From IMG/VR virus record IMGVR_UViG_3300027806_000037, positions 64,001 to 83,939 of that record: 19,939 bases of DNA. One strand, given 5' to 3'. Below the pieces are notes generated by a model. That model did not search any database and was not told the DNA's origin. It was given only the letters and a program-made list of their open reading frames with translations. Source of the stretch: a virus (lineage: Duplodnaviria > Heunggongvirae > Uroviricota > Caudoviricetes). Made by a program: the position numbers and the translations under genes. This document shows, in pieces, positions 1-19,200 of the stretch. Numbering within the stretch: the first letter of the stretch is position 1; each line of letters opens with the position of its first letter.

Positions 1-285
1 GAAGTTTTATCAGCATATGAGGATTACGGTACTGTTGAAACCGTATCATGGGATAAAATTAAATTAATAGTTGATTTATCTGACCATATTTTAAGTATGG
101 ATGAAGAAGATTTTAACAATTATTTAAATAATTGTTCAGTTGACTTAGAGTGTTGGTTTAACGAAATGAAGGGGAATGAAATAGATATGCCTAGATTTAG
201 TCCTGATGACAGATATACACCAACGCCAGATAAAAAGGAGTTTAATTTAATATTAGCTGACAGATTATCAGAGATAGACTATTAA
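1..285 (+). CDS. Hypothetical acidic protein, 5'-truncated (frame open from base 1)
   Basis: Frame 1 reads EVLSAYEDYGTVETVSWDKIKLIVDLSDHILS with no stop into the listed ATG at 97, ending at TAA 283-285. Confidence 0.7.
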   Translation, partial: EVLSAYEDYGTVETVSWDKIKLIVDLSDHILSMDEEDFNNYLNNCSVDLECWFNEMKGNEIDMPRFSPDDRYTPTPDKKEFNLILADRLSEIDY

Positions 286-804: not shown

Positions 805-1638
805 ATGAAAAAATTTATCATTACAGAATCGGAAAGGAGTGAAATTTTAAAAATGCATAAAAATGCTATTTTATCGGAAAGAAATTCACTAATAAATGAA
901 GAATCGATTGTTACAAAAGCCGCGTTAGACCAACTAAATGCAGGTAAAGTTTTATATGATTGGGAAATAACTTTTGATGGTGCTGATGGTAACTATACAA
1001 AAATATATTCATTACCGCTACAAAATAATGATGAATTTTATAGTGGTAATGATGCTAAATTTTATGAACCAACAGATCAAGGTTTAAGTATTGTTGGTCA
1101 CAAAGTTATCGGTCCTACTAAAATGAGTCAAAATCAGCAAGACGGTAAATTATCGGCTCCGGTAGCAAAAGCACCAATTGTTTGTGCGAAATCAGAACAG
1201 GATTTATCCAAAAAAATATACTTAAGAAAAGGTTGTAAAAATGATTTTGTAAAACAACTCCAAATGTTATTGGATGTTAAAGGATATGGCACTACTTTAG
1301 GTAAGGCAAGCATTGATGGTAATTTTGGTGATGCAACAAAAAATGCTGTAATGAAATTCCAAAAAGAAAATAATTTAAAAGTTGATGGTATTGTTGGTAT
1401 GCAAACTTGGAGGACATTACAAGCTCTTGAGTCAGTACAAAGTAAAACGGTTGAACCGCAAAGAGTTGTACCAACCGCTCAACAACCCACACCTAAACAA
1501 CCTGTTGCACCACAACAACCTGCAACACCTGAACCAGCACCAACAAGAAGAGATCAAACAAGAGAAAGACAAGATTTAAGAAGGAGTCAAAGAAGAGATA
1601 GACAAGACCAAAGAGCACGACAAAGAGCGCAAAGATAA
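805..1638 (+). CDS. Peptidoglycan-binding-domain protein with ITESE-type leader, Pro/Gln linker and Arg/Gln/Asp-rich tail
   Basis: aa ~140-205 (LRKGCKNDFVKQLQMLL...IDGNFGDATKNAVMKFQKENNLKVDGIVGMQTWRTL) match the PG_binding_1 three-helix pattern. No catalytic domain recognised. Confidence 0.85.
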   Translation: MKKFIITESERSEILKMHKNAILSERNSLINEESIVTKAALDQLNAGKVLYDWEITFDGADGNYTKIYSLPLQNNDEFYSGNDAKFYEPTDQGLSIVGHKVIGPTKMSQNQQDGKLSAPVAKAPIVCAKSEQDLSKKIYLRKGCKNDFVKQLQMLLDVKGYGTTLGKASIDGNFGDATKNAVMKFQKENNLKVDGIVGMQTWRTLQALESVQSKTVEPQRVVPTAQQPTPKQPVAPQQPATPEPAPTRRDQTRERQDLRRSQRRDRQDQRARQRAQR

Positions 1639-6087: not shown

Positions 6088-6494
6088 ACGAAGAACCAAA
6101 ATACATGGATTTAGATGATAATATTATTCTATTTTGTGCATTTAGATATGCGTTAGGTAGAAGAACATATGTTGTTAGTACTGTGATTAGGCGATTAATT
6201 GATCAATATCTTAATATCCACCCAGTGGATAGGGAAAAATATGTGGAAGAAATTGATAAAGCAGATAAAGAAAATGATTTGGGTTCATCTTATGATAGAG
6301 AAGATTGGATGAAGGTTAAAGCATTATTTACCGAAGAAAATCATTGCTTTGTTGACACATATTTAAATCAAGAAGATTTGGAAAATAATAAACTTTATGG
6401 TACTTTTGCTGCGGTTAAACATGATGGGAAATATTTCTCATTAGATATGAAATCACATTATCATACTTGTAAAGAAATTAAAAATGAAAAATAA
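6084..6494 (+). CDS. Hypothetical phage protein (AFRYALGRRTY motif)
   Basis: 136-aa ORF translationally coupled on both sides. Confidence 0.75.
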   Translation: MNEEPKYMDLDDNIILFCAFRYALGRRTYVVSTVIRRLIDQYLNIHPVDREKYVEEIDKADKENDLGSSYDREDWMKVKALFTEENHCFVDTYLNQEDLENNKLYGTFAAVKHDGKYFSLDMKSHYHTCKEIKNEK

Positions 6495-7692: not shown

Positions 7693-9009
<1,317 letters not shown>

Positions 9010-9034: not shown

Positions 9035-9520
9035 TCAAAAGTTTTTAAGATATTTTTTGAGCATTGAGTGGTTTATACCAATAATACCATGCTCAGTTAC
9101 TAGTCCACCATTCTCAATTAGTTCGATAAAATCAATAGCATCTAATTCATCACGACTTCCAGCCCTAATTTCGGGGTTATTTGATTTACCAAATGTAATA
9201 AGATATCTATCACTAACACCCTCACCACCAATATTAAAAACATGTGTTCTTGAATATGAAACGTTTACTGGTGTTTTATAGAGTTTAATTTCATGTGGAA
9301 TAGGATTATCTAAATTAGATAATGTGGTTGTAAAAAACATAGGTAAATCACATGTTAAAAGATAACCCAAATTGTTAATTCTATTAACAATATCCTCAAC
9401 TAGATTGATATTTTTTGTGGTAAATTCAACATATTCTTGAAATGTTTTATTACTTACATGAATATCATTGTCATTCATCCAATCTAGGGCGTTATCTATT
9501 CTTTCTTGTACAGTTTTCAT
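9035..9520 (-). CDS. Hypothetical protein
   Basis: 161-aa ORF coupled by ATGA overlap to the upstream 42-aa ORF. Confidence 0.75.
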   Translation of the reverse strand: MKTVQERIDNALDWMNDNDIHVSNKTFQEYVEFTTKNINLVEDIVNRINNLGYLLTCDLPMFFTTTLSNLDNPIPHEIKLYKTPVNVSYSRTHVFNIGGEGVSDRYLITFGKSNNPEIRAGSRDELDAIDFIELIENGGLVTEHGIIGINHSMLKKYLKNF

Positions 9521-9645
9521 CTCCCTTGACCTTTATATTCTTTTGGTTTGGGGGAGTGTTTATTATATTTTTTCTTTGCAATTCCTTTTTTCTTTTTTCC
9601 GAATGAATCGGGTTTTGTTGATTGTCCAGATTTTCCTTTCGCCAT
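9517..9645 (-). CDS. Small highly basic protein, 42 aa, missing from the ORF track
   Basis: Hand translation MAKGKSGQSTKPDSFGKKKKGIAKKKYNKHSPKPKEYKGQGR*. Its TGA overlaps the ATG of the next gene, and a TATTTAT motif lies upstream. Confidence 0.8.
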   Translation of the reverse strand: MAKGKSGQSTKPDSFGKKKKGIAKKKYNKHSPKPKEYKGQGR

Positions 9646-9650
9646 TTTAG

Positions 9651-9697
9651 GTCCAATATTGTGATTTATTTTTTACAATAAATACACAATATTGGAC
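9651..9697 (-). promoter_or_regulatory. 20-bp hairpin containing the putative late motif, ending 5 nt before ATG 9645
   Basis: GTCCAATATTGTG (9651-9663) / CACAATATTGGAC (9685-9697), plus ATTTATT (9664-9670) / AATAAAT (9677-9683), with a 1-nt bulge and 6-nt loop. Confidence 0.8.
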
Positions 9698-9720
9698 TTT
9701 TTATGGTTTTCTATTTACTT

Positions 9721-11592
9721 TTAATTTTTTACTTCTTCAAACACAACATCTTCTGTGTTTTGAGTTTGTTCAGATTGTTGTGTGGACTGGTACATTTCCA
9801 TACTAATATCCGCCCAAGTTTTGTTCATATTCTCAATTGATTGTTTGATTTTATCAATATCTTTTGATTCATGCGCTGCTTTTAATTCAGTTAACGAATC
9901 GACTAGTTTTGATTTATTTGTCTCCGAAAGTTTATCATCAAATTCTTTAATTTGTTTTTCAGTTTGGAAAATCATTGCGTCAGATTGATTGATAATATCA
10001 ATTCTTTCTTTTTCACGCTTATCAGATTCAGAATATAATTCAGCTTCCTTTTTCATCTTATCAATTTCTTCTTTCGAAAGCTGAGAACCACCCTCAATTC
10101 TGATTTTATTTTCCTTACCCGTTGCATTATCTTTTGCATGAACAGAAAGAATACCATTAGCATCGATATCAAAAGTTACCTCAATTTGAGGAATACCTCT
10201 AGGTGCTGGCATGATACCATCAAGATGGAACCTACCTAAGCTTCTATTATCCTTTGCTAGAGGACGTTCACCTTGCAACACATGAATTTCTACACCCGGT
10301 TGATTATCAATCGCAGTAGAGAATGTTTCGCTCTTTTTAGATGGGATTGTTGTATTCGCTTCAATTAGTCTTGTCATAACACCACCCATTGTTTCAATAC
10401 CAAGTGAGAGAGGTGTTACATCCAAGAGAAGAACGTCCTTAATGTCACCAACAAGTGCTGAACCCTGAATTGCAGCACCAAGAGCAACAACTTCATCAGG
10501 GTTAACCGATTTATTTGGTTTTTTACCAAAAAGATTCTCAACAGCAATTTGAAGCATCGGAATCCTTGTTGATCCACCAACTAAGATAATTTCGTCAATT
10601 TCTGATGGTTTCATTTTAGCATTTGATAGTGCTGATTTACAAGAATTAATTGCCCTATCGACCAAATCAGAAATCATTGATTCAAATTTTGCTTTAGTTA
10701 GTTGTCTAACAAAGTGAAGTGGTTGACCATCTTTTGCTGTAATATAGGGAAGATTAATATCTGTTTGACTAGTTGAGGATAATTCAATTTTTGCTTTTTC
10801 AGCCGCTTCCTTTAGACGCTGAAATGACATAGCATCTTTTTTCAAATCAATACCATGTTCATTCTTGAATTCATCAACCATCCAATCAATAATTTTATTA
10901 TCGAAATCATCACCACCAAGATGGGTATCACCATCAGTTGATTTAACCTCAAAGACACCATCACCAATTTCTAACACTGAAACGTCATGAGTGCCGCCGC
11001 CCGTATCAAAAACAACGATTTTTGCATCTTTGTTTTTCTTATCCAAACCATATGCTAGTGCTGCTGCGGTTGGTTCATTAATAATTCTAAGAACCTCAAG
11101 ACCCGCAATTTTACCAGCTTCAATAGTTGCTGTTCTTTCCGCATCACCAAAATAAGCGGGTACGGTAATAACCGCTTTAGTAACTTCTTGACCAAGATAA
11201 TCTTCAGCGGTCTTCTTCATCTTTTGAAGAATCATTGCAGAAATTTCTTGAGGTGTATAAAGTCTGTCACCAATTCTAACACCGGGAATATTACCCCCAA
11301 CCTTGTCAACTTTATATGGTACCTTTTTACTTTCTTCTTTTACATATGGAGAAGAAAAATCCTTACCAATAAATCGTTTAATCGAATAAATTGTTTGTGT
11401 TGGATTTGTTACCGCTTGTCTTTTTGCGGAATCACCAATTTTTCTATCATCACCATTAAACCCAACAATGGAGGGTGTGGTTCTTCTACCTTCACTATTT
11501 GCTATGATTTGAGGTTCACCCCCCTCAACAATAGCAACTGCGGAATTTGTGGTTCCCAAATCAATACCTAATACATATTCTTTTTTACTCAT
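9721..11592 (-). CDS. dnaK: Hsp70 chaperone DnaK, full length
   Basis: [87 protein letters not shown] and C-terminal FEEVK. Confidence 0.98.
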
Positions 11593-11599
11593 AATTTTA

Positions 11600-11623
11600 T
11601 TTATTTAAAAGTTTATTTAAAAG
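11600..11623. repeat. Tandem 12-bp direct repeat TTTATTTAAAAG x2 upstream of dnaK
   Basis: Exact copies at 11600-11611 and 11612-11623. Confidence 0.7.
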
Positions 11624-11667
11624 CTGTTTATCAATCAACATACCATTTCATTTTTTATGACAATATG

Positions 11668-12249
11668 TCAACCTTCTTGTGACATTTGGTCATATCCTAT
11701 GCAAGTACCGGAACAATATTTGTGTTTTTCTTTAACCGACATTCTAAACCTTCGACAAAAAATTTCACCCTCAATTAACTTATCATTAGGTGTTTGTTTT
11801 CCACAATATTTACATGGGGAATATCCTTCTCTTGCCGCATACTTTTCAGCTAATTCTTTTTGAATTTGAAATAAATCTTCTTTATTAAGAGACATTCTTT
11901 CATTTTCAAAAATTTCATCTAATTTGTAACGACCATTAATAGTAAAAAAATCAGAATTTAGTGGTGCTGAATAATCAATAAAAATAGTTTTATCATCGGT
12001 ATCGAAAGTTAATAGGTACTCTTTAATACGCTCAATATCTGTAGTCTTAATATTTTTTGTGTTATTATAGGGTTCTTTTTTTCCTCTAACTAAAATTTTA
12101 TTAATATTATATTCAACGATTGAAGAAATATCGGCACGATAAAACTTTGTGGGTTTATCTTCACCGAATACATGATTAATGTATTCAGTTTTTTTAGTAT
12201 CTAAAAGCATTAAAGCTTCATCATACTTAATTTTATTGGTTTTTCTCAT
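11668..12249 (-). CDS. Hypothetical protein with C-terminal Cys cluster (TRASH/MYM-like zinc-binding)
   Basis: PCKYCGK...YCSGTC near the C-terminus. ATGA overlap with the GMP reductase-like gene. Confidence 0.7.
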   Translation of the reverse strand: MRKTNKIKYDEALMLLDTKKTEYINHVFGEDKPTKFYRADISSIVEYNINKILVRGKKEPYNNTKNIKTTDIERIKEYLLTFDTDDKTIFIDYSAPLNSDFFTINGRYKLDEIFENERMSLNKEDLFQIQKELAEKYAAREGYSPCKYCGKQTPNDKLIEGEIFCRRFRMSVKEKHKYCSGTCIGYDQMSQEG

Positions 12250-13256
12250 TTATTAAATCTTTTAAACGCATTTTGTGTAATCATTTCGACATGACAACCC
12301 CTAAATTCATCCAAAGTTTTCGCATCAACATATGACATTGCACTTTTTAAGTAATCTGTCAAATTTTCACTCCACTTATACAAATCATATTCAACACAAT
12401 TCCATTTTGAAATACCTTCAGCGGTTTTTAATGTGGTGTTACCCCATTTTTTCTGAACTTCTTTTGTGGACATTCCACGATACTTCTTATATAGTTTAAA
12501 CTTTTTTTGGAACAACCAACTTGCTAGTTTTTTATTCCTAATTCTAAATAATTTCCAAAGATAAGGGTCAGAACAACTTTGAAGTGATTTATTAAGTAGC
12601 GAACCAATCATTACAATGTCAGCACCTAATGCTACCGCTTTAATAATATCTGAAAACTTTCTGGTTCCACCATCAGAAATAATTTTGGTTTTAAAGTCAA
12701 AACGTGTTTTAATTTTATAACATTCTTCAATAAGAGAAGCATAAGGATAATGAACACCAGTATTTGCGCTAGTTGTGCAACCAGCACCAGCACCAATACC
12801 AATTCGCACACCCCAAACACCATATCTTGCAAAATCCGCAAAACTATCTGGATTTGCAATATTACCAACAATTAATTTAATATTTGGACAATTTTTATTA
12901 AATAATTCAATAACATTACGCAATCTTGGCATATGTCCATTTGCCATATCAATACAAATATAACGTTCCTCATCCGTACCAATTGATGCTAAGTTTTCCG
13001 CATCGGTTAATGAAATACTAATAAAAAAATAATCGCATGTATAATCGCTATTATAATCAGAACTACAGCGTGGCATACAAATATTAATTCTATTATTTAT
13101 ATAATCATGTGAGTTATTTTTATCAACAACGGTATCCATAGGAGATGTCATAATTGGAAGCATGTGGTTTTCATCATAGCAATTCACCTCACTTCTTGAA
13201 TTAATTCGGGTATAATTTTTTGGTACAATAACAATGTCATCAAAGTCGTACTTCAT
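12246..13256 (-). CDS. guaC: GMP reductase-like enzyme (IMPDH/GMPR family, no CBS domains)
   Basis: YDFDDIVIVP, SPMDTV, IDMANGH, GNIA, RIGIGAGAGCTT catalytic Cys loop, DGG, KAVALGADIVMIGS, YRGMS and EG. The flap is short and lacks the IMPDH Arg-Tyr dyad, favouring GMPR. Confidence 0.75.
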   Translation of the reverse strand: MKYDFDDIVIVPKNYTRINSRSEVNCYDENHMLPIMTSPMDTVVDKNNSHDYINNRINICMPRCSSDYNSDYTCDYFFISISLTDAENLASIGTDEERYICIDMANGHMPRLRNVIELFNKNCPNIKLIVGNIANPDSFADFARYGVWGVRIGIGAGAGCTTSANTGVHYPYASLIEECYKIKTRFDFKTKIISDGGTRKFSDIIKAVALGADIVMIGSLLNKSLQSCSDPYLWKLFRIRNKKLASWLFQKKFKLYKKYRGMSTKEVQKKWGNTTLKTAEGISKWNCVEYDLYKWSENLTDYLKSAMSYVDAKTLDEFRGCHVEMITQNAFKRFNK

Positions 13257-13287: not shown

Positions 13288-13319
13288 CAAATCTATGAAA
13301 TGTTTTCGACAAAGACAAA
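13288..13319 (-). promoter_or_regulatory. Bacteroidota primary-sigma-type promoter for the guaC-dnaK run
   Basis: Minus strand TTTG 13319-13316, 20-nt spacer, TAGATTTG 13295-13288. Confidence 0.7.
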
Positions 13320-13326
13320 TATTTAT
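13320..13326 (+). promoter_or_regulatory. Putative late-promoter motif TATTTAT
   Basis: AATATTTAT just before ATG 13331, back-to-back with the divergent host-type promoter. Confidence 0.5.
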
Positions 13327-13330
13327 GGTT

Positions 13331-14449
13331 ATGAAAAAGATAAAATTAACAGAATCAGATTTATATAGGATAATTAAACAAGTTCTTTTTGAACAGGAGG
13401 AAGAAAAGAGAAGTTTTACATTTTCTCCGGGAGCATTTGCATCTTTTATAACATCATCATCAGGTGAAAGATTTGTTAAACATCTTAATAACAAATATGA
13501 TGAGATTGTTGTTAATGGGGGTTTGGATTTACAAGGAACACCAATTCAATCCTTACCGGATAATCTTAAAGTTGGGGGATGGTTGGATTTACGAGGAACA
13601 CCAATTCAATCCTTACCGGATAATCTTCATGTTGGGGGAAATTTGGAGTTAGATGAAACACAAATTCAATCCTTACCGGATAATCTTTATGTTGGGGGAA
13701 ATTTGGAGTTAGATGGAATACCAATTCAATACTTAGGGAATAATATTCATGTTAAGGGAAATTTGGAGTTAGATGGAATACCAATTCAATACTTAGGGAA
13801 TAATATTCATGTTGGGGGAAATTTGTATTTATATGGAACACAAATTCAATCCTTAGGGGATAATCTTCATGTTGGGGGAAATTTGGATTTATATGGAACA
13901 CCAATTCAATCCTTACCGGATAATCTTCGTGTTGGGGGATGGTTGGATTTAAAAAGAGCACCAATTCAATCCTTACCGGATAATCTTCATGTTGGGGGAG
14001 ATTTGTTTTTAAGTAAAACACCAATTCAATCCTTACCGAATAATCTTCATGTTGGGGGAAGTTTGTATTTACAAGGAACACCAATTCAATCCTTACCGGA
14101 TAATCTTTATGTTGGGAGAAATTTGGATTTAAGAGGAACACCAATTCAATCCTTACCGGATAATCTTCGTGTTGGGGGAGATTTGTGGTTAAATGGAACA
14201 CCAATTAAATCCTTAGGGGATAATCTTTATGTTGGGGGAAGTTTGTGGTTAAATGGAACACCAATTCAATACTTACCGGATAATCTTCATGTTGAGGGAA
14301 GTTTGGATTTAAGAGGAACACCAATTCAATCCTTACCGGATAATCTTCATGTTCCAAAAATTATTTTAATTAAAACCACGCCATTAAGTGATAATTATGA
14401 ATTGGTTCAGACATATAGTGAAAAATATAAAATTAATAGTACTTTTTAA
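13331..14449 (+). CDS. Short-type (20-residue) leucine-rich-repeat-like solenoid protein with LTESD-type leader (start revised to ATG 13331)
   Basis: MKKIKLTESDLYRIIKQVLFEQ leader, then 14 repeats of consensus VGGxLxLxGTPIQSLPDNLx. Confidence 0.85.
   Translation: MKKIKLTESDLYRIIKQVLFEQEEEKRSFTFSPGAFASFITSSSGERFVKHLNNKYDEIVVNGGLDLQGTPIQSLPDNLKVGGWLDLRGTPIQSLPDNLHVGGNLELDETQIQSLPDNLYVGGNLELDGIPIQYLGNNIHVKGNLELDGIPIQYLGNNIHVGGNLYLYGTQIQSLGDNLHVGGNLDLYGTPIQSLPDNLRVGGWLDLKRAPIQSLPDNLHVGGDLFLSKTPIQSLPNNLHVGGSLYLQGTPIQSLPDNLYVGRNLDLRGTPIQSLPDNLRVGGDLWLNGTPIKSLGDNLYVGGSLWLNGTPIQYLPDNLHVEGSLDLRGTPIQSLPDNLHVPKIILIKTTPLSDNYELVQTYSEKYKINSTF
13511..14350 (+). repeat. Tandem array of 14 in-frame 60-bp units
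   Basis: Units start at 13511, 13571, ... 14291. Consensus GTTGGGGGAnnnTTGnnnTTAnnnGGAACACCAATTCAATCCTTACCGGATAATCTTnnn. Confidence 0.97.
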
Positions 14450-14458
14450 TTATAAAAA

Positions 14459-14971
14459 ATGGAAAAAAAAGTTCCAATAACTAGAATAGGAAAATTTTTT
14501 GGAGGTGAAGATTTCGCTTTAGATATTTCTATGGGTGAAGAATGGTTAGTAGGTGATATGAATTTTAAGTTAATTCTTTATAGAATAGATAAATATAAAA
14601 CAAAAAATGATGATGTTTATGGTGAAGCGGTAAAAGATGGAATAAAATTTTTACCGCCAATTGAATTTAATGCGTATGTTAAAGTTGTTCAGCCAGAAAA
14701 TAAATTTCTTGGTCAGTCGATGGTATCACAAACCGAACCGGGTAATATGACGTTTTCTGTTTATCAAAAAACACTAGATGAACTTGGAATTGAAATTAAT
14801 TTTGGTGATTATATTGGTTATTATGAAACCGAAACCAGAGTTAGATACTATACAGTTAATAATGATGGTCGTATTGTATCTGATAATAAACATACATATG
14901 GTGGATATAAGCCGTTTTATAGGACTTATGTTGCGTCACCAGTAACAAATAATGAATTTAGAGGACTATAA
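14459..14971 (+). CDS. Probable virion neck/head-tail adaptor protein (T4 gp14-like by position)
   Basis: 170 aa, upstream of the tail-completion-like and sheath genes, containing a DDVYGE motif. The homology is inferred, not searched. Confidence 0.5.
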   Translation: MEKKVPITRIGKFFGGEDFALDISMGEEWLVGDMNFKLILYRIDKYKTKNDDVYGEAVKDGIKFLPPIEFNAYVKVVQPENKFLGQSMVSQTEPGNMTFSVYQKTLDELGIEINFGDYIGYYETETRVRYYTVNNDGRIVSDNKHTYGGYKPFYRTYVASPVTNNEFRGL

Positions 14972-16017
14972 TGGGTTTACCAAAAAAAATAAAAAAAGAT
15001 TTAAACCTTACGCCAGAAAAAATTCTTCTTGAGAGAAGAGAAGAGTTATTGGAATATATTAATGAGGATGGAACTTATTTACCAAAATCAATTTTACATG
15101 CTGATTTAGATAGAGGGTTTTTAGATTTTGTTAAAGATAAACTCAGAACCGTTGTTGAGGGAAAAGAAGTTCCAATGATTGATGTTATCATTACAACACA
15201 AAATTGGGCGCAGTTTACCGAAACTTGGAAATTCCAAAATATGGATGATAATCCGGAACCTCCGTTCATTACTGTTGTTAGAAAAAAGGAAACAAAATTT
15301 GGAACAAATCCCGCATTAAAATATAACATACCAAATAGAAGACAATATTTTTACGCTGCGGTACCAACATGGACTGGAACAAGAAAGGGGGTTGATATAT
15401 ACACAATACCCCAACCAATTCCCGTCGATATTAATTACAGCATAAAAATAGTTTGTAATAGGATGAGGGAATTAAATGAATTTAATAAAAATGTTTTAAG
15501 AGAGTTTGCATCCAGACAAGCATATACAACAGTTAAAGGTCATTATATCCCAATTATAATGGATAATATTAGTGATGAATCGGTTAATGAATTAGAGAAA
15601 AGAAGATATTATATGCAAAATTATGATTTTACTTTATTGGGTTTCTTAATAGATGAAGATGAATTTGAGGTAAAACCAGCAATTTCTAGATCACTTGCTC
15701 TAATTGAAACGGATAGTTCGTTACCCAAAAAATCTAATGGTAAAATAAATCAAAGACTTGATTATGGTAATCAAATGATTTTTAATAGTGGTGTTACTGA
15801 ATTAACACAAGTTTTCTATTCTCAAACTAATATATCATTACAACAAACATCAAATGTTGATTCATATGATGTTTATATAAATAATGATTTATATGGTAGT
15901 GATATTCAAAAATTATTATTAAATAGTGGTGATGTTTTAAGAATTGTCATCACAAAAACAGACAACGGACAAAAAGGAATAATTAATTTTCAAACTGAAA
16001 TTAACTATTCACCGTAA
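14971..16017 (+). CDS. Probable tail completion/sheath terminator protein (T4 gp15-like by position) with C-terminal extension
   Basis: PFITVVR and IPQPIPVDINYSIKIVCNRMRELNEF resemble tail-terminator folds. It lies directly before the sheath gene. Confidence 0.5.
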   Translation: MGLPKKIKKDLNLTPEKILLERREELLEYINEDGTYLPKSILHADLDRGFLDFVKDKLRTVVEGKEVPMIDVIITTQNWAQFTETWKFQNMDDNPEPPFITVVRKKETKFGTNPALKYNIPNRRQYFYAAVPTWTGTRKGVDIYTIPQPIPVDINYSIKIVCNRMRELNEFNKNVLREFASRQAYTTVKGHYIPIIMDNISDESVNELEKRRYYMQNYDFTLLGFLIDEDEFEVKPAISRSLALIETDSSLPKKSNGKINQRLDYGNQMIFNSGVTELTQVFYSQTNISLQQTSNVDSYDVYINNDLYGSDIQKLLLNSGDVLRIVITKTDNGQKGIINFQTEINYSP

Positions 16018-16163
16018 ACATCTTTTTTTTCTTTACACTTTTCAATAATTAAAGATTCCAAAAATTTATAAATTTTGTAACCTTTTTTATCGCAATATCT
16101 TTTTAAGATATCGTGTACTTCTGGGTCAATTTTTAAGTTTTTAATTTTTTTGTTATTTGGCAT
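16005..16163 (-). CDS. Small ribbon-helix-helix-like DNA-binding protein, 52 aa, missing from the ORF track
   Basis: Hand translation MPNNKKIKNLKIDPEVHDILKRYCDKKGYKIYKFLESLIIEKCKEKKDVYGE*. Alternating strand KNLKID followed by two helices. Confidence 0.75.
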   Translation of the reverse strand: MPNNKKIKNLKIDPEVHDILKRYCDKKGYKIYKFLESLIIEKCKEKKDVYGE

Positions 16164-16197
16164 GGTAGAAAAAAGGAAGAATTTTTTCTTCCCATAT

Positions 16198-16248
16198 TAT
16201 AAATATATTGACTTTTTGCTGATTTTTAATAAAAACGTAGATATTTAT
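16198..16248. promoter_or_regulatory. Divergent pair of TATTTAT motifs (minus 16205-16199 toward the RHH gene, plus 16242-16248 toward the sheath)
   Basis: Plus-strand TATAAATA at 16198-16205 and GATATTTATT at 16240-16249. Confidence 0.5.
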
Positions 16249-16280
16249 TGAAAAATAAATTAAAAAGAAAATTTTAAAAA

Positions 16281-19200
16281 ATGGCAACATCCAATAAAGT
16301 CTTTGTATCTCCGGGGGTTTACACTTCAGAGCGAGACTTAAGTTTTGTGGCACAAAGTGTAGGTGTCACAACCTTAGGTATTGCTGGTGAAACTCAAAAA
16401 GGTCCGGCTTTCGAACCTATATTCATCACAAGTTACGATGAATTTGAAACTTATTTTGGTGGAACATCACCAGAAAAGTTTATAAACACACAAATTCCAA
16501 AATATGAAGCTGCTTACATAGCAAAATCTTATTTACAGCAATCAAACCAATTGTTTGTATCAAGAATTCTTGGTCTTTCTGGTTATGATGCTGGTCCTTC
16601 ATGGTCAATTAAGATTAATGCTAATATGAATCCAGCAACGGTTTCATTATCTAGCTGCACAACTTATTGCTCCGCTGGTGAATATTTAACAAGCGGTTGC
16701 ACCGTAGAAGCACCAATTACATTTACAATTAATTTTACAGGTAATACTTGTTCACTTAGCAGTATTGTAATTAGTGGTGATTCAAATTACAACAGCATTA
16801 TTGGTCAATATGCTACAAGTGAATATGAGCAGTTTAATGGAAGTATTTCAACATTAGAAGAAGATTTAAAAGAGCAAATCTTTGGTGTTATGAGTTCAAC
16901 CGGTACAAGCGGAAGCTCAGTTTATTACTTCGGTTCTATTCCCGCTTCAGCAACAACTGTATCACCCTTAAGTGCTTACACAGCATCAACAAATGCGGTT
17001 AACGTATTTAGTGTAGCTGACCCGGTTAGCTTGAATCAATTAACATCAAGATTAAACGATTCTTGGTACTTTGCAACATTCAATCAATTTGCACCTAATG
17101 TAACGGTACTACCTAACGGTGAATCGGTAACACCTAACTACTCAGGTATTTCATTCTATAGTGTTGTTAATAGTTTAGTGTTCTCAGGTCAGGTATGTAC
17201 AACAGCATCTACGTCAACTACAACATCGACAACAACAGATCCTTGCGCTGCTCCAGTACCCTCACAAACACCTGTTGCTCCGGTGGTTACATGCTGCAAT
17301 TACTTTACAGGAACATTAACGGGTACAATTTACACATTATTTGGTAAACAATTTAATGATTACCAAGATTTGGTTGTTGCAACTCTAAGATCTAGAGGTG
17401 TTGTTGATTATGTGTCAAGTAATGGACCTGTTTATGAAATCTCAACATTAAATTATGTTGGTCTCGATTGTACCACAGATTCTTATGAATTAGTACAAAA
17501 AAATCCTTTTATGTCATTTGCAATTACTGGTTTTACAGATGCGGGTCAATACTTTAACTTCAAAACCTCAATGAGTAACACCGATAAGAACTTCATTGAT
17601 AGAGTTCTTGGTTCGGGTAACTTTAGCAAACCAAAAACCGAAGTTCCTTTATTTGTTGAAGAAAATTATTCAAACTTATTAACTTATGGTTGGAATAAGG
17701 GTTATGTAAGAGGTTTACAATGTAACTTATTGGCTTTAGATAGTGCGAGAAGTAATGATGGAAATTCTATCGGTTGGTATCTTGATAGATATCAAACACC
17801 AATTACTCCGTTTATTGTGTCTGAATTAAGAGGTAATAAAGTATTTAAGCTCTTTAAATTCCATAGTATTTCAGATGGTACAAATGCAAATACTGAAATT
17901 AAGATTTCAATCGCTAATATTTCATTTGCAAATGGAACATTTGATATCTTGGTAAGAGATTATAATGATACTGATCAAAATCCGGTTGTAATTGAGAAGT
18001 TCTCAAACTGTAGCATGAATCCTTCTCTTAATAACTTCGTTGCTAAGAGAATTGGTACTGTTGATGGGGAATATGAACTTAAGTCAAAGTATGTTATGGT
18101 TGAATTAAGTGATGAATATCCTACTGATGCATTACCTTGCGGTTTCGAGGGTTACTTAATGAGAGAATATGATAATGAAACATCTCCGTTCGTTGTCTAC
18201 AAAACAAAATATGATTTTCCGGGTGAAGTTATCTACAATCCTCCATTTGGTACATTAGCTGGTGCTGAAGATTCAATCACAAGTAGCGGCGATAGAGTAA
18301 GAAATACTTACTTAGGTATTTCTTCAGAAATTCCGGTTGATTCAGATTTCTTCTACTACAAAGGTAAGAAAAATGTTTCATCAGTTGAGCTTTGCACAAG
18401 TGAAACATCAGATTCTTGGTTGTATTTAACAAAAGGTTTCCACATGGATTCTGGTGCTAGCGTTGTAAAGATTTCTTCTGATTATGTAACATCAGGTAAA
18501 CCTGCGTTTGATGTTGGTGTAACTTCATTCAGGAGTGAACCCACATCAGCAAATAATCCTTACTACAAATTACAATCTCGTAAGTTTACTCTCTACTTAC
18601 AAAATGGTTTCGACGGTTGGGACATTTATACAGAATCAAGAACAAATACTGATAGATTCCAATTAGGTGGTTCCGGTTACCAAAATGGTGCTTGTCCTTC
18701 AGTTAGATATCCTGATGCAACCGGTGTTGGATTGTTAAAACAAATCTCTGTAAATGACACATTTACCGATTATGCTAACACTGACTTCTACGCTTACTTG
18801 TATGGTATCAGACAATTTGCAAATCCTGAAGCAACAACAATTAACGTTCTTGTAACTCCGGGTATTGATTTTGTAAATAACTTACAATTAATTGAGGATA
18901 CAATTACAATGGTTGAACAAGAAAGAGCGGATTCACTTTATGTCATGACAACTCCTGACATGAATATGTTTGTTCCAACAGCTTCAGATCCTGCTGATTT
19001 CTACACACCAACAGATATTGTTGATCAGTTAGAAGCTGCAAATATTGACACAAACTACACAGCAACTTACTATCCTTGGATTCTTGTTAAGGACACGGTA
19101 AATAATACTCAGGTATATATTCCTTCTACGGGTGAAGTTTGCAGAAACTTCGCACTAACCGATAACATTGCATTCCCTTGGTTCGCAACCGCTGGTTACA

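Follow-up and report, generated by a model that had tools for sequence, protein, structure and literature searches.

A 14-unit leucine-rich-repeat gene from a T4-type phage as a probable member of a recombining, multilocus binder family with a T4-like leader

What kind of gene carries a row of 60-nt repeats in which certain codons are identical down to their silent bases and their neighbours vary by multi-base changes, and what might a phage use its product for? The locus that raises this question is a tandem array at 13511–14350 (+ strand) in a 19,939-nt stretch of tailed-phage DNA (the window), which forms the last 19.9 kb of the 83.9-kb IMG/VR record IMGVR_UViG_3300027806_000037 (27% complete according to CheckV, GC content about 30%). 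The original prediction, made from the letters of the DNA, saw here an array of leucine-rich repeats (LRRs) and proposed a recombination-driven diversifying system. We find that the evolutionary part of this description, a recombining and diversifying LRR family, is very probably right. The best explanation as a whole, in which we have fair confidence, is a multilocus, recombining family of phage LRR binders that carry a T4-like leader.

The whole array lies in a single open reading frame (ORF; 13331–14449, 372 aa, with the stop codon ending at 14449). Cut in frame from 13511, it yields 14 units of 60 nt (20 aa) with the consensus V-G-G-x-L-x-L-x-G-T-P-I-Q-S-L-P-D-N-L-x followed by a degenerate 15th unit that caps the array; with Tandem Repeats Finder the period is 60 nt and the copy number 13.9 at 13522–14353 (score 1097). 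Together with the fold prediction described below, these results bear out the reading of the region as 14 LRR units. Codons 1, 5, 7, 12, 15 and 18 are GTT, TTG, TTA, ATT, TTA and AAT in 14/14 units, silent bases included, and the residue sets that had been listed for the variable codons are correct (G/W/N/D/S at 4, D/E/Y/F/W at 6, Q/R/D/Y/K/S/N at 8 and K/H/Y/R at 20). The same holds for the finer claims that just 2 nt separate unit 4 from unit 5, that units 4, 5, 6 and 12 carry CCG>GGG and units 4, 5 and 13 carry TCC>TAC, that units 2 and 8 have TGG as codon 4 and units 12 and 13 have it as codon 6, and that the differences between units are almost exclusively non-synonymous.

Codon choice in the 14 units follows position. 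Leucine is TTG at position 5, TTA at 7 and 15, and CTT at 19; Ser14, where serine is present, is always TCC, Pro16 is CCG and Gly2 is GGG. These fixed codons are rare in the long ORFs of the genome, where TCC accounts for 8% of Ser, CCG for 14% of Pro, GGG for 7% of Gly and TTG for 17% of Leu codons. Codon bias is therefore no explanation for the frozen silent sites, and the identity of codons by position, rare ones included, indicates common descent together with homogenisation. Pooled over unit pairs, the proportions of non-synonymous (pN) and synonymous (pS) differences are 0.198 and 0.028, a pN/pS of about 7, although repeat units compared in pairs do not supply phylogenetically independent observations. 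A minimum count of changes from the codon table gives about 32 (at least 32) non-synonymous against 2 synonymous; with a neutral expectation of 24% synonymous, obtained by random mutation of the consensus, the binomial P is 0.005. The four-gamete test is failed by 92 of the 231 informative site pairs, and all four gametes are seen for the two-base change CCG>GGG paired with TCC>TAC, a combination that is hard to explain by recurrent mutation.

Prediction with AlphaFold2 (AF2) from 77 aligned relatives, a check suggested at the outset, gives a confident LRR solenoid (pLDDT 88.6, pTM 0.77). The model consists of an N-terminal helix over the leader, a small cap domain, the regular solenoid and a C-terminal cap helix, and DSSP assigns short strands to unit positions 19-20-1 and 5-6. 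The top Foldseek matches in the PDB are all LRR proteins (Leptospira LIC11098, SHOC2, YopM, LRRTM2 and SspH2), and among viral models entries named 'Leucine-rich repeat [uncultured Caudovirales phage]' come first. By sequence, phmmer matches one solved structure, chain 0 of 8z5u (Vibrio FlrP; E 5.5e-28 over 162 residues). Pfam and PHROGs offer no confident family, their matches being a sub-threshold one to pAdhesive_15 and a weak PHROG. The 14 units show the segment pattern L5-x-L7-x-x-T10-x-I12-x-x-L15-P16, with Thr at the Asn position, and the V1–L5 spacing is one residue longer than the canonical L1-x-x-L4. Pattern and model together place the protein in the LRR superfamily, with a predicted solenoid fold.

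Where the variation falls on this fold was assessed from 69 distinct 20-residue units pooled from 13 genes of the close family. Entropy is highest at unit position 8 (3.39 bits), followed by positions 6 (2.69), 4 (2.66), 20 (2.39), 9 (2.32) and 2 (2.20), whilst L19, V1, G3, L5 and L7 are nearly fixed and interleave with the variable positions over ten residues. As a general rule for LRRs, the x residues flanking LxL point to the concave surface. From this rule, the in/out alternation and the DSSP strands, we infer that positions 20, 2, 4, 6 and 8 sit on one exposed face; solvent exposure is thus deduced from the secondary structure of the model, the periodicity and general knowledge of LRRs, and the alternation with core residues and the strands support the earlier view that the variable codons specify outward-facing residues of the beta-strand segment. 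Glycine aside, the residues that abound at the exposed positions are D, N, Y, S, R, H, E and K, a composition that fits a binding surface.

The gene is not alone. A search of viral contigs with its N-terminal 80 residues found 17 loci, and comparison of their flanks distinguishes at least 7 or 8 loci besides that of the window; several paralogues can lie on one contig, and the ENA contig L004 holds three. The number of units varies from 3 to 14 across the family. In alignments and BLAST searches, homology to every paralogous locus begins sharply at 13316–13319, a few bases before the start codon. Within the gene, the sequence is a patchwork of exact blocks that are present elsewhere, those of 93–123 nt at other array positions: 13343–13531 (189 nt) also in L004b and L006, 13668–13790 (123 nt) also in L004a, 14075–14167 (93 nt) also in L007, 14137–14233 (97 nt) also in L006, and 14229–14347 (119 nt) also in L007. 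The last three make up the stretch from unit 10.4 to unit 14.9 (14075–14347, +). The 123-nt block, which runs from the end of unit 3 to unit 5 on the + strand, is identical in the paralogue L004:794-1681, whose 5' part and 3' array differ, and marks a recombination joint or possibly an assembly cross-over point.

The exchange reaches beyond the repeats. The linker and N-terminal cap domain of the window gene (13394–13510, +; helix, strand and helix in the AF2 model, pLDDT 76–93) are of a type that we call A, and types B, C and D take its place in paralogues and also at orthologous loci. Orthologous loci with 99–100% identical flanks differ in their array or even in cap type, as in L004b against L006, and array or cap differences behind equally identical flanks recur in L009 against L016/L017 and in L011 against L019. 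By comparison, the 3' end of the gene (14351–14449, +), comprising the degenerate last repeat, the C-terminal cap helix and the stop codon, keeps the pattern TPL..N.ELV..Y..KY.I in paralogues. The further loci and the blocks shared in different orders bear out the suggestion of a multilocus family that exchanges cassettes.

Rates of change between paralogues separate along the gene. Silent divergence of the leader plus cap is 0.11–0.22 in 5/6 gene pairs, and 0.028 between the window gene and L006, both of which have an A-type 5' part. In the array framework pS is 0.015–0.07, despite the comparison of non-orthologous units, and at the hypervariable codons pN is 0.40–0.49. In these sequences, such a contrast is what we read as the signature of concerted evolution combined with diversifying selection, and with the reordering of units among paralogues it upholds the original combination of homogenisation, shuffling and positive selection. 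One pair of contigs from different samples, L007 and L008, gives a view of a single event. They are collinear over 12 kb, with 2 differences in 12,240 nt (positions 6491 and 6510); both are non-synonymous, 19 nt apart and within one unit, at unit positions 2 and 8. The L007 version of this unit is identical to unit 14 of the window, and for the L008 version the records compared contained no donor. The pair fits a short conversion tract.

From these results we propose the following explanation. The array would form the body of a 372-aa LRR solenoid that binds a ligand, and its gene would be one member of a multigene family spread over at least 8 loci in large T4-type phages of one lineage. All members share one layout, with a conserved promoter-like box and leader of 21–22 residues, an exchangeable cap, 3–14 LRR units and a conserved C-terminal cap. 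Three processes could then act together: units would be gained and lost; short-tract gene conversion or recombination among units and paralogues would keep framework codons and silent sites identical; and diversifying selection would act on five or six outward-facing residues per unit (20, 2, 4, 6, 8 and 9). General recombination is very active in T4-type phages, and it would be sufficient, with no dedicated mutator required. As to the use of the protein, we infer that the leader would act like the T4 capsid-targeting sequence and bring the protein into the prohead core, where a gp21-type protease would remove it after an (L/I)xE motif; the mature LRR protein would be ejected into the host with the DNA and there bind a variable protein of the host, perhaps part of a defence system.

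The leader is the feature on which this last part turns. It comprises 21 codons (13331–13393, +), begins MKKIKLTE and ends LFE, and is a candidate capsid-targeting or propeptide signal with two (L/I)-x-E motifs on the + strand, LTE at 13346–13354 (residues 6–8) and LFE at 13385–13393 (residues 19–21); AF2 predicts a helix over its SDLYRIIKQVLFEQ stretch. We take the ATG at 13331, reading MKKIKL, as the true start because the near-identical copy in L005 has no upstream ATG (ATA ATT replaces ATG GTT). The general pattern is K-hydrophobic-hydrophobic-(I/L)-T-E-(S/K/Q) followed by an amphipathic helix. In the six records G000–G005, a leader with the [IL]-T/S-E motif heads at least 12 non-LRR ORFs with unrelated bodies, where it is encoded by different codons and is therefore conserved as a peptide. 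Amongst diverged LRR relatives the first motif is LTE, ITE or ISE and the second LFE, LLE, LVE or LIE, so that P3 and P1 of both are kept and P2 drifts; in other cargo proteins the second motif can also be INE. An ORF at 805–1638 (+) of the window, starting MKKFIITE and matching binding regions of endolysin families (PHROG E 9e-17), would be a second kind of cargo behind a like leader.

Two related contigs that also carry paralogues encode a Peptidase_S77 protease, the family of T4 gp21 (78.8 bits; in L024 at 13626-14348), within a head module in T4 order: terminase, portal, protease, a 515-aa protein and a gp23-like capsid protein. The 515-aa protein is unannotated and dense in (L/I)xE motifs, and we take it as a putative scaffold. 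The tail sheath of the window is nearest to gp18 of T4-like phages. The start codon of the LRR gene is preceded at 4 nt by a conserved ATATTTAT box (13319–13326, +; placed by the alignment and BLAST boundaries), a candidate promoter element of late type. The same box stands 13–21 nt upstream of about 20% of ORFs in G000–G005 and precedes the prohead protease, the putative scaffold and leader-bearing genes (G001/L024 13600-14700 and related contigs); a second class lies 4 nt from the start and includes the LRR genes. The box may be the late promoter of the lineage, and the 4-nt class possibly gives near-leaderless mRNAs. In T4, the capsid-targeting sequence has 10 residues with processing determinants at 8 and 10, is found on diverse internal proteins, and loads proteins that act against host restriction (PMC9026906, PMC3012670). 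Virion delivery of the LRR protein is thus plausible from the format of the leader, the gp21-type protease in related contigs and the promoter-like box shared with head genes; we would put capsid loading and injection at somewhat short of an even chance.

Besides the non-independence of the unit pairs, several findings weigh against this explanation. No protease or capsid genes were found on the window's own 84-kb record, which is 27% complete. The leader shows no similarity, judged by eye, to the T4 capsid-targeting sequence (which starts MKTYQEF), and has only the format in common with it (MK start, hydrophobic residues, (L/I)xE). The temperate Edwardsiella phage Edno5 has a relative that lacks the leader; its gene stands between cI and exo/recT in the early-left operon, a placement that suits a role of the wider superfamily inside the cell and not in the virion. 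Many related contigs break within arrays, 8 of them ending inside the LRR gene, and the join of the 5' and 3' parts across 13668–13790 is found in this contig only.

The alternative that survives best, although we still consider it unlikely, is that the LRR proteins are not packaged at all and are made in the infected cell as binders for host takeover or anti-defence, the shared N-terminal helix serving for docking to a phage partner or chaperone, for oligomerisation, or for control of translation or stability. The early accessory operon of the Edno5 relative suits it, as does the company of the paralogues, which lie amid genes for replication, nucleotide metabolism and homing endonucleases. 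The phage encodes its own Hsp70, and the leader is conserved, and predicted helical, well past the first (L/I)xE motif. Set against these are the retention of P3 and P1 in both motifs as P2 drifts, the presence of a gp21-type protease in the lineage, the same promoter-like box before the protease and putative scaffold genes, and the fact that it is the Edno5 protein, the one in the early operon, that has no leader. Edno5 and EBPR podovirus 1 are the only cultured phages matched by tblastn, and megablast of the region found no match amongst cultured phage records.

A second alternative, rather improbable, concerns the data themselves: much of the mosaicism could be an artefact of short-read assembly, with wrong paths taken through paralogues that share identical stretches of 100–190 nt, so that the 14-unit gene and some of the apparent recombinants would not exist as such. 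Beyond the contigs that end in the gene, it draws on three contigs around the 123-nt block. L012 is 100% identical to the window over 13668–18108, yet has a B-type 5' part as in L010 and L004a, giving two different 5' parts for one identical 3' part, and it begins at the gene start. L005 matches exactly over 13329–13737 and at 99.5% over 13318–13737, with a different upstream flank, and both L005 and L010 break off within the shared block, at the equivalent of window position 13737. Both halves of the window gene are nevertheless reproduced independently, since L012 repeats units 4–14 plus 3.7 kb downstream at 100% and L005 the stretch from the leader to unit 4 at 99.5%, whilst the join over the block is not; one of the two, L012 or the window, may follow a wrong path, or each may be a natural recombinant. 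Exact repeats within the array reach at most 58 nt, and the order of units within each half is therefore resolvable by usual k-mers. The inter-locus blocks of 93–123 nt also fall below the k of 141 in the name of the L004 contig and below the k of 127 that we assume from general practice for the others. Finally, frozen codons, high pN/pS and position-specific variability recur in every independent assembly, and L007 and L008 are collinear over 12 kb.

Still less probable is a role as an adhesin, that is, a receptor-binding accessory on the virion surface or associated with the tail, whose arrays track variation of the host surface. The position of the window gene invites this idea. Its end is followed after 9 nt by two ORFs of like orientation (14459–14971 and 14971–16017, neither with a match in Pfam or PHROGs), and these by the tail sheath gene. 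Host-recognition proteins of phage Goslar are predicted to contain LRR modules (bioRxiv 10.64898/2026.04.21.720040), and the richness of the exposed residues in D, N, Y and S would suit an adhesin. Against this, all the other paralogues lie away from tail genes. They adjoin genes for ribonucleotide reductase, exonuclease, thioredoxin, a methyltransferase (methylase) and HNH endonucleases, so the tail-side position is no trait of the family, and the significance once given to the place of the gene ahead of the tail genes falls away as incidental. The window's tail genes were not found in G001–G005 or L004, which cover other parts of the genome. The protein has no attachment or trimerisation domain. 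Its leader, moreover, is common to small acidic proteins and to the protein matching endolysin binding regions.

The weakest alternative is a targeted mutator, either a diversity-generating retroelement or a copier of cassettes as in the lamprey variable lymphocyte receptors (VLRs), that writes the variable codons; the restriction of variation to few codons and the location of both L007/L008 differences at adenines are what it has in its favour, and we give it almost no credence in view of what the 84-kb record contains. No reverse transcriptase (RVT_1) match was found there, whereas control genomes gave matches, and there is neither a template repeat nor a second DNA copy of the units, the array matching only itself. 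Changes show no adenine bias, since they occur at G, C and T sites too (GAT>TAT, CCG>GGG, TCC>TAC), and many adenines are invariant across units (TTA, AAT, ATT, CAA). The retroelement was rejected on these grounds. The VLR-like route was set aside as well: the gene is complete, the donors seen are all complete paralogues, and the search for silent donor cassettes found no partial ones in this record, where one divergent paralogue is the only relative. With no reverse transcriptase, no second copy of the units and changes beyond adenines, the word 'system' in the original prediction was an overstatement; homologous recombination among units and paralogues, with selection, is enough.

Returning to the recombining family with a T4-like leader, we compared it with systems already described. 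Hypervariable LRR multigene families are known from Flavobacterium psychrophilum, lamprey VLRs and the nucleotide-binding LRR receptors (NLRs) of plants, and so are the leader-tagged polymorphic internal proteins of T4 and the automatic LRR annotation of uncultured-phage proteins. Our literature search found no published description of a phage LRR family with a T4-style leader. A close likeness in evolution is to the LRR loci of F. psychrophilum (Altae-Tran et al. 2020, PMC10392669), which have many paralogues, 2–14 internal repeats and one hypervariable face, and where strains differ in number, length and repeat content by recombination despite conserved flanks. Those proteins differ in being on the bacterial cell surface, with a signal peptide, a C-terminal domain of the type IX secretion system and repeats of ~22 residues, and in sharing a single tandem locus that is strewn with fragments of genes, linked through microhomology. 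In VLRs and in the LRRs of plant NLRs and receptor-like proteins, LRR units are likewise shuffled, and diversity is concentrated at the x positions of the LxxLxLxx beta-strand. VLRs, however, are put together in somatic cells from silent cassettes, by a dedicated process linked to a deaminase; the phage genes are complete in the germline and evolve across populations of phages, and we found no machinery dedicated to this.

In delivery, there is a close parallel with the T4 internal proteins IPI, IPII, IPIII and Alt (PMC3012670, PMC9026906). These too have a short leader starting MK and ending (L/I)-x-E, shared by otherwise unrelated and fast-changing proteins, a gp21-family prohead protease in the lineage, and genes in variable regions where they replace one another. 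The present leader differs in being unrelated in sequence and longer, with two candidate sites, and in having a repeat array as its putative packaged cargo. The type III LRR effectors YopM, IpaH, SspH and SlrP resemble the family in their LP repeats of ~20 residues, are matched in structure, and are delivered into another cell where they bind host proteins; they take another delivery route, often carry an E3 ligase domain and show no significant sequence similarity. FlrP, the only solved structure with significant sequence similarity, shares the beta-solenoid and a 20-residue unit (L-P-x-x-L-x-V-x-G-x-L-x-L-x-x-T-x-I) and also binds other proteins, being a periplasmic component of the Vibrio polar flagellar motor that contacts the rod and FliF loops (8z5u; bioRxiv 10.64898/2025.12.04.692373). 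Unlike the phage proteins, it has a Sec signal peptide, works as a single structural spacer of the motor, and is not reported as a multigene family, with neither a hypervariable face nor a phage context. The 20-residue repeat type itself is very common (5,614 cluster representatives at E ≤0.001 and 378 at ≤1e-30), and in many of its phage members a C-terminal PcfJ-like domain is found in place of the leader. It is almost unstudied, FlrP being the sole member with a solved structure that we found.

Phage proteins that enter the cell together with the DNA act ahead of all phage gene expression; those of T4 are weapons against restriction. If the LRR proteins are packaged, these phages would carry a panel of tunable binders in place of a few fixed inhibitors, the variable faces would mark host proteins under attack, and the very regular 20-residue scaffold with its defined variable positions would be a natural starting point for binder engineering. 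Taken furthest, and we offer this only tentatively, a lineage of huge T4-type phages may inherit a stock of LRR binders that gene conversion and selection diversify on one face, load them into the capsid through a portable (L/I)xE leader and inject them with the DNA to neutralise variable host proteins of defence or surface maintenance; these viruses would then have their own equivalent of an anticipatory receptor repertoire, in the form of delivered proteins. Even if nothing is packaged, near-identical genome pairs that differ only within arrays provide a clean natural record of the rate at which arrays change.

Some further features of the window and its relatives may be recorded. The first 285 nt of the window (1–285, +) belong to a distant paralogue within this genome (G000:C1:63179-64285, 368 aa), whose 3' end they form and which has a like leader, 3–4 degenerate LRR units and an unrelated C-terminal domain. 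A 21-residue unit containing a cysteine (G-C-x-N-L) is interspersed in the arrays of L004:794-1681, L006, L011, L013, L016 and L021; it occurs in most paralogues and in 0/14 units of the window. Mobile endonucleases cluster around the variable LRR loci: the ribonucleotide reductase genes at L004:1969-7389, which contain an intein and LAGLIDADG domains, adjoin an LRR paralogue, and the L006 paralogue is flanked by HNH endonucleases and a DNA methyltransferase. In the head module of L024 (G001), the portal gene (9199-12339, 1046 aa) has HNH-endonuclease matches at residues 448–579 and probably contains an intein or an inserted homing endonuclease.

Upstream of the LRR gene, the window encodes on the – strand a full-length Hsp70/DnaK of 623 aa (9721–11592; Pfam HSP70, 838 bits). 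Two genes of purine metabolism lie near one another on the same strand (7954–8967 and 12246–13256), a short adenylosuccinate-synthetase homologue (337 aa) and a gene of the GMP reductase/IMPDH family. The former matches a PHROG annotated '2-aminooxy adenylosuccinate synthetase', and its short PurA-like form is reminiscent of PurZ from phages with 2-aminoadenine genomes.

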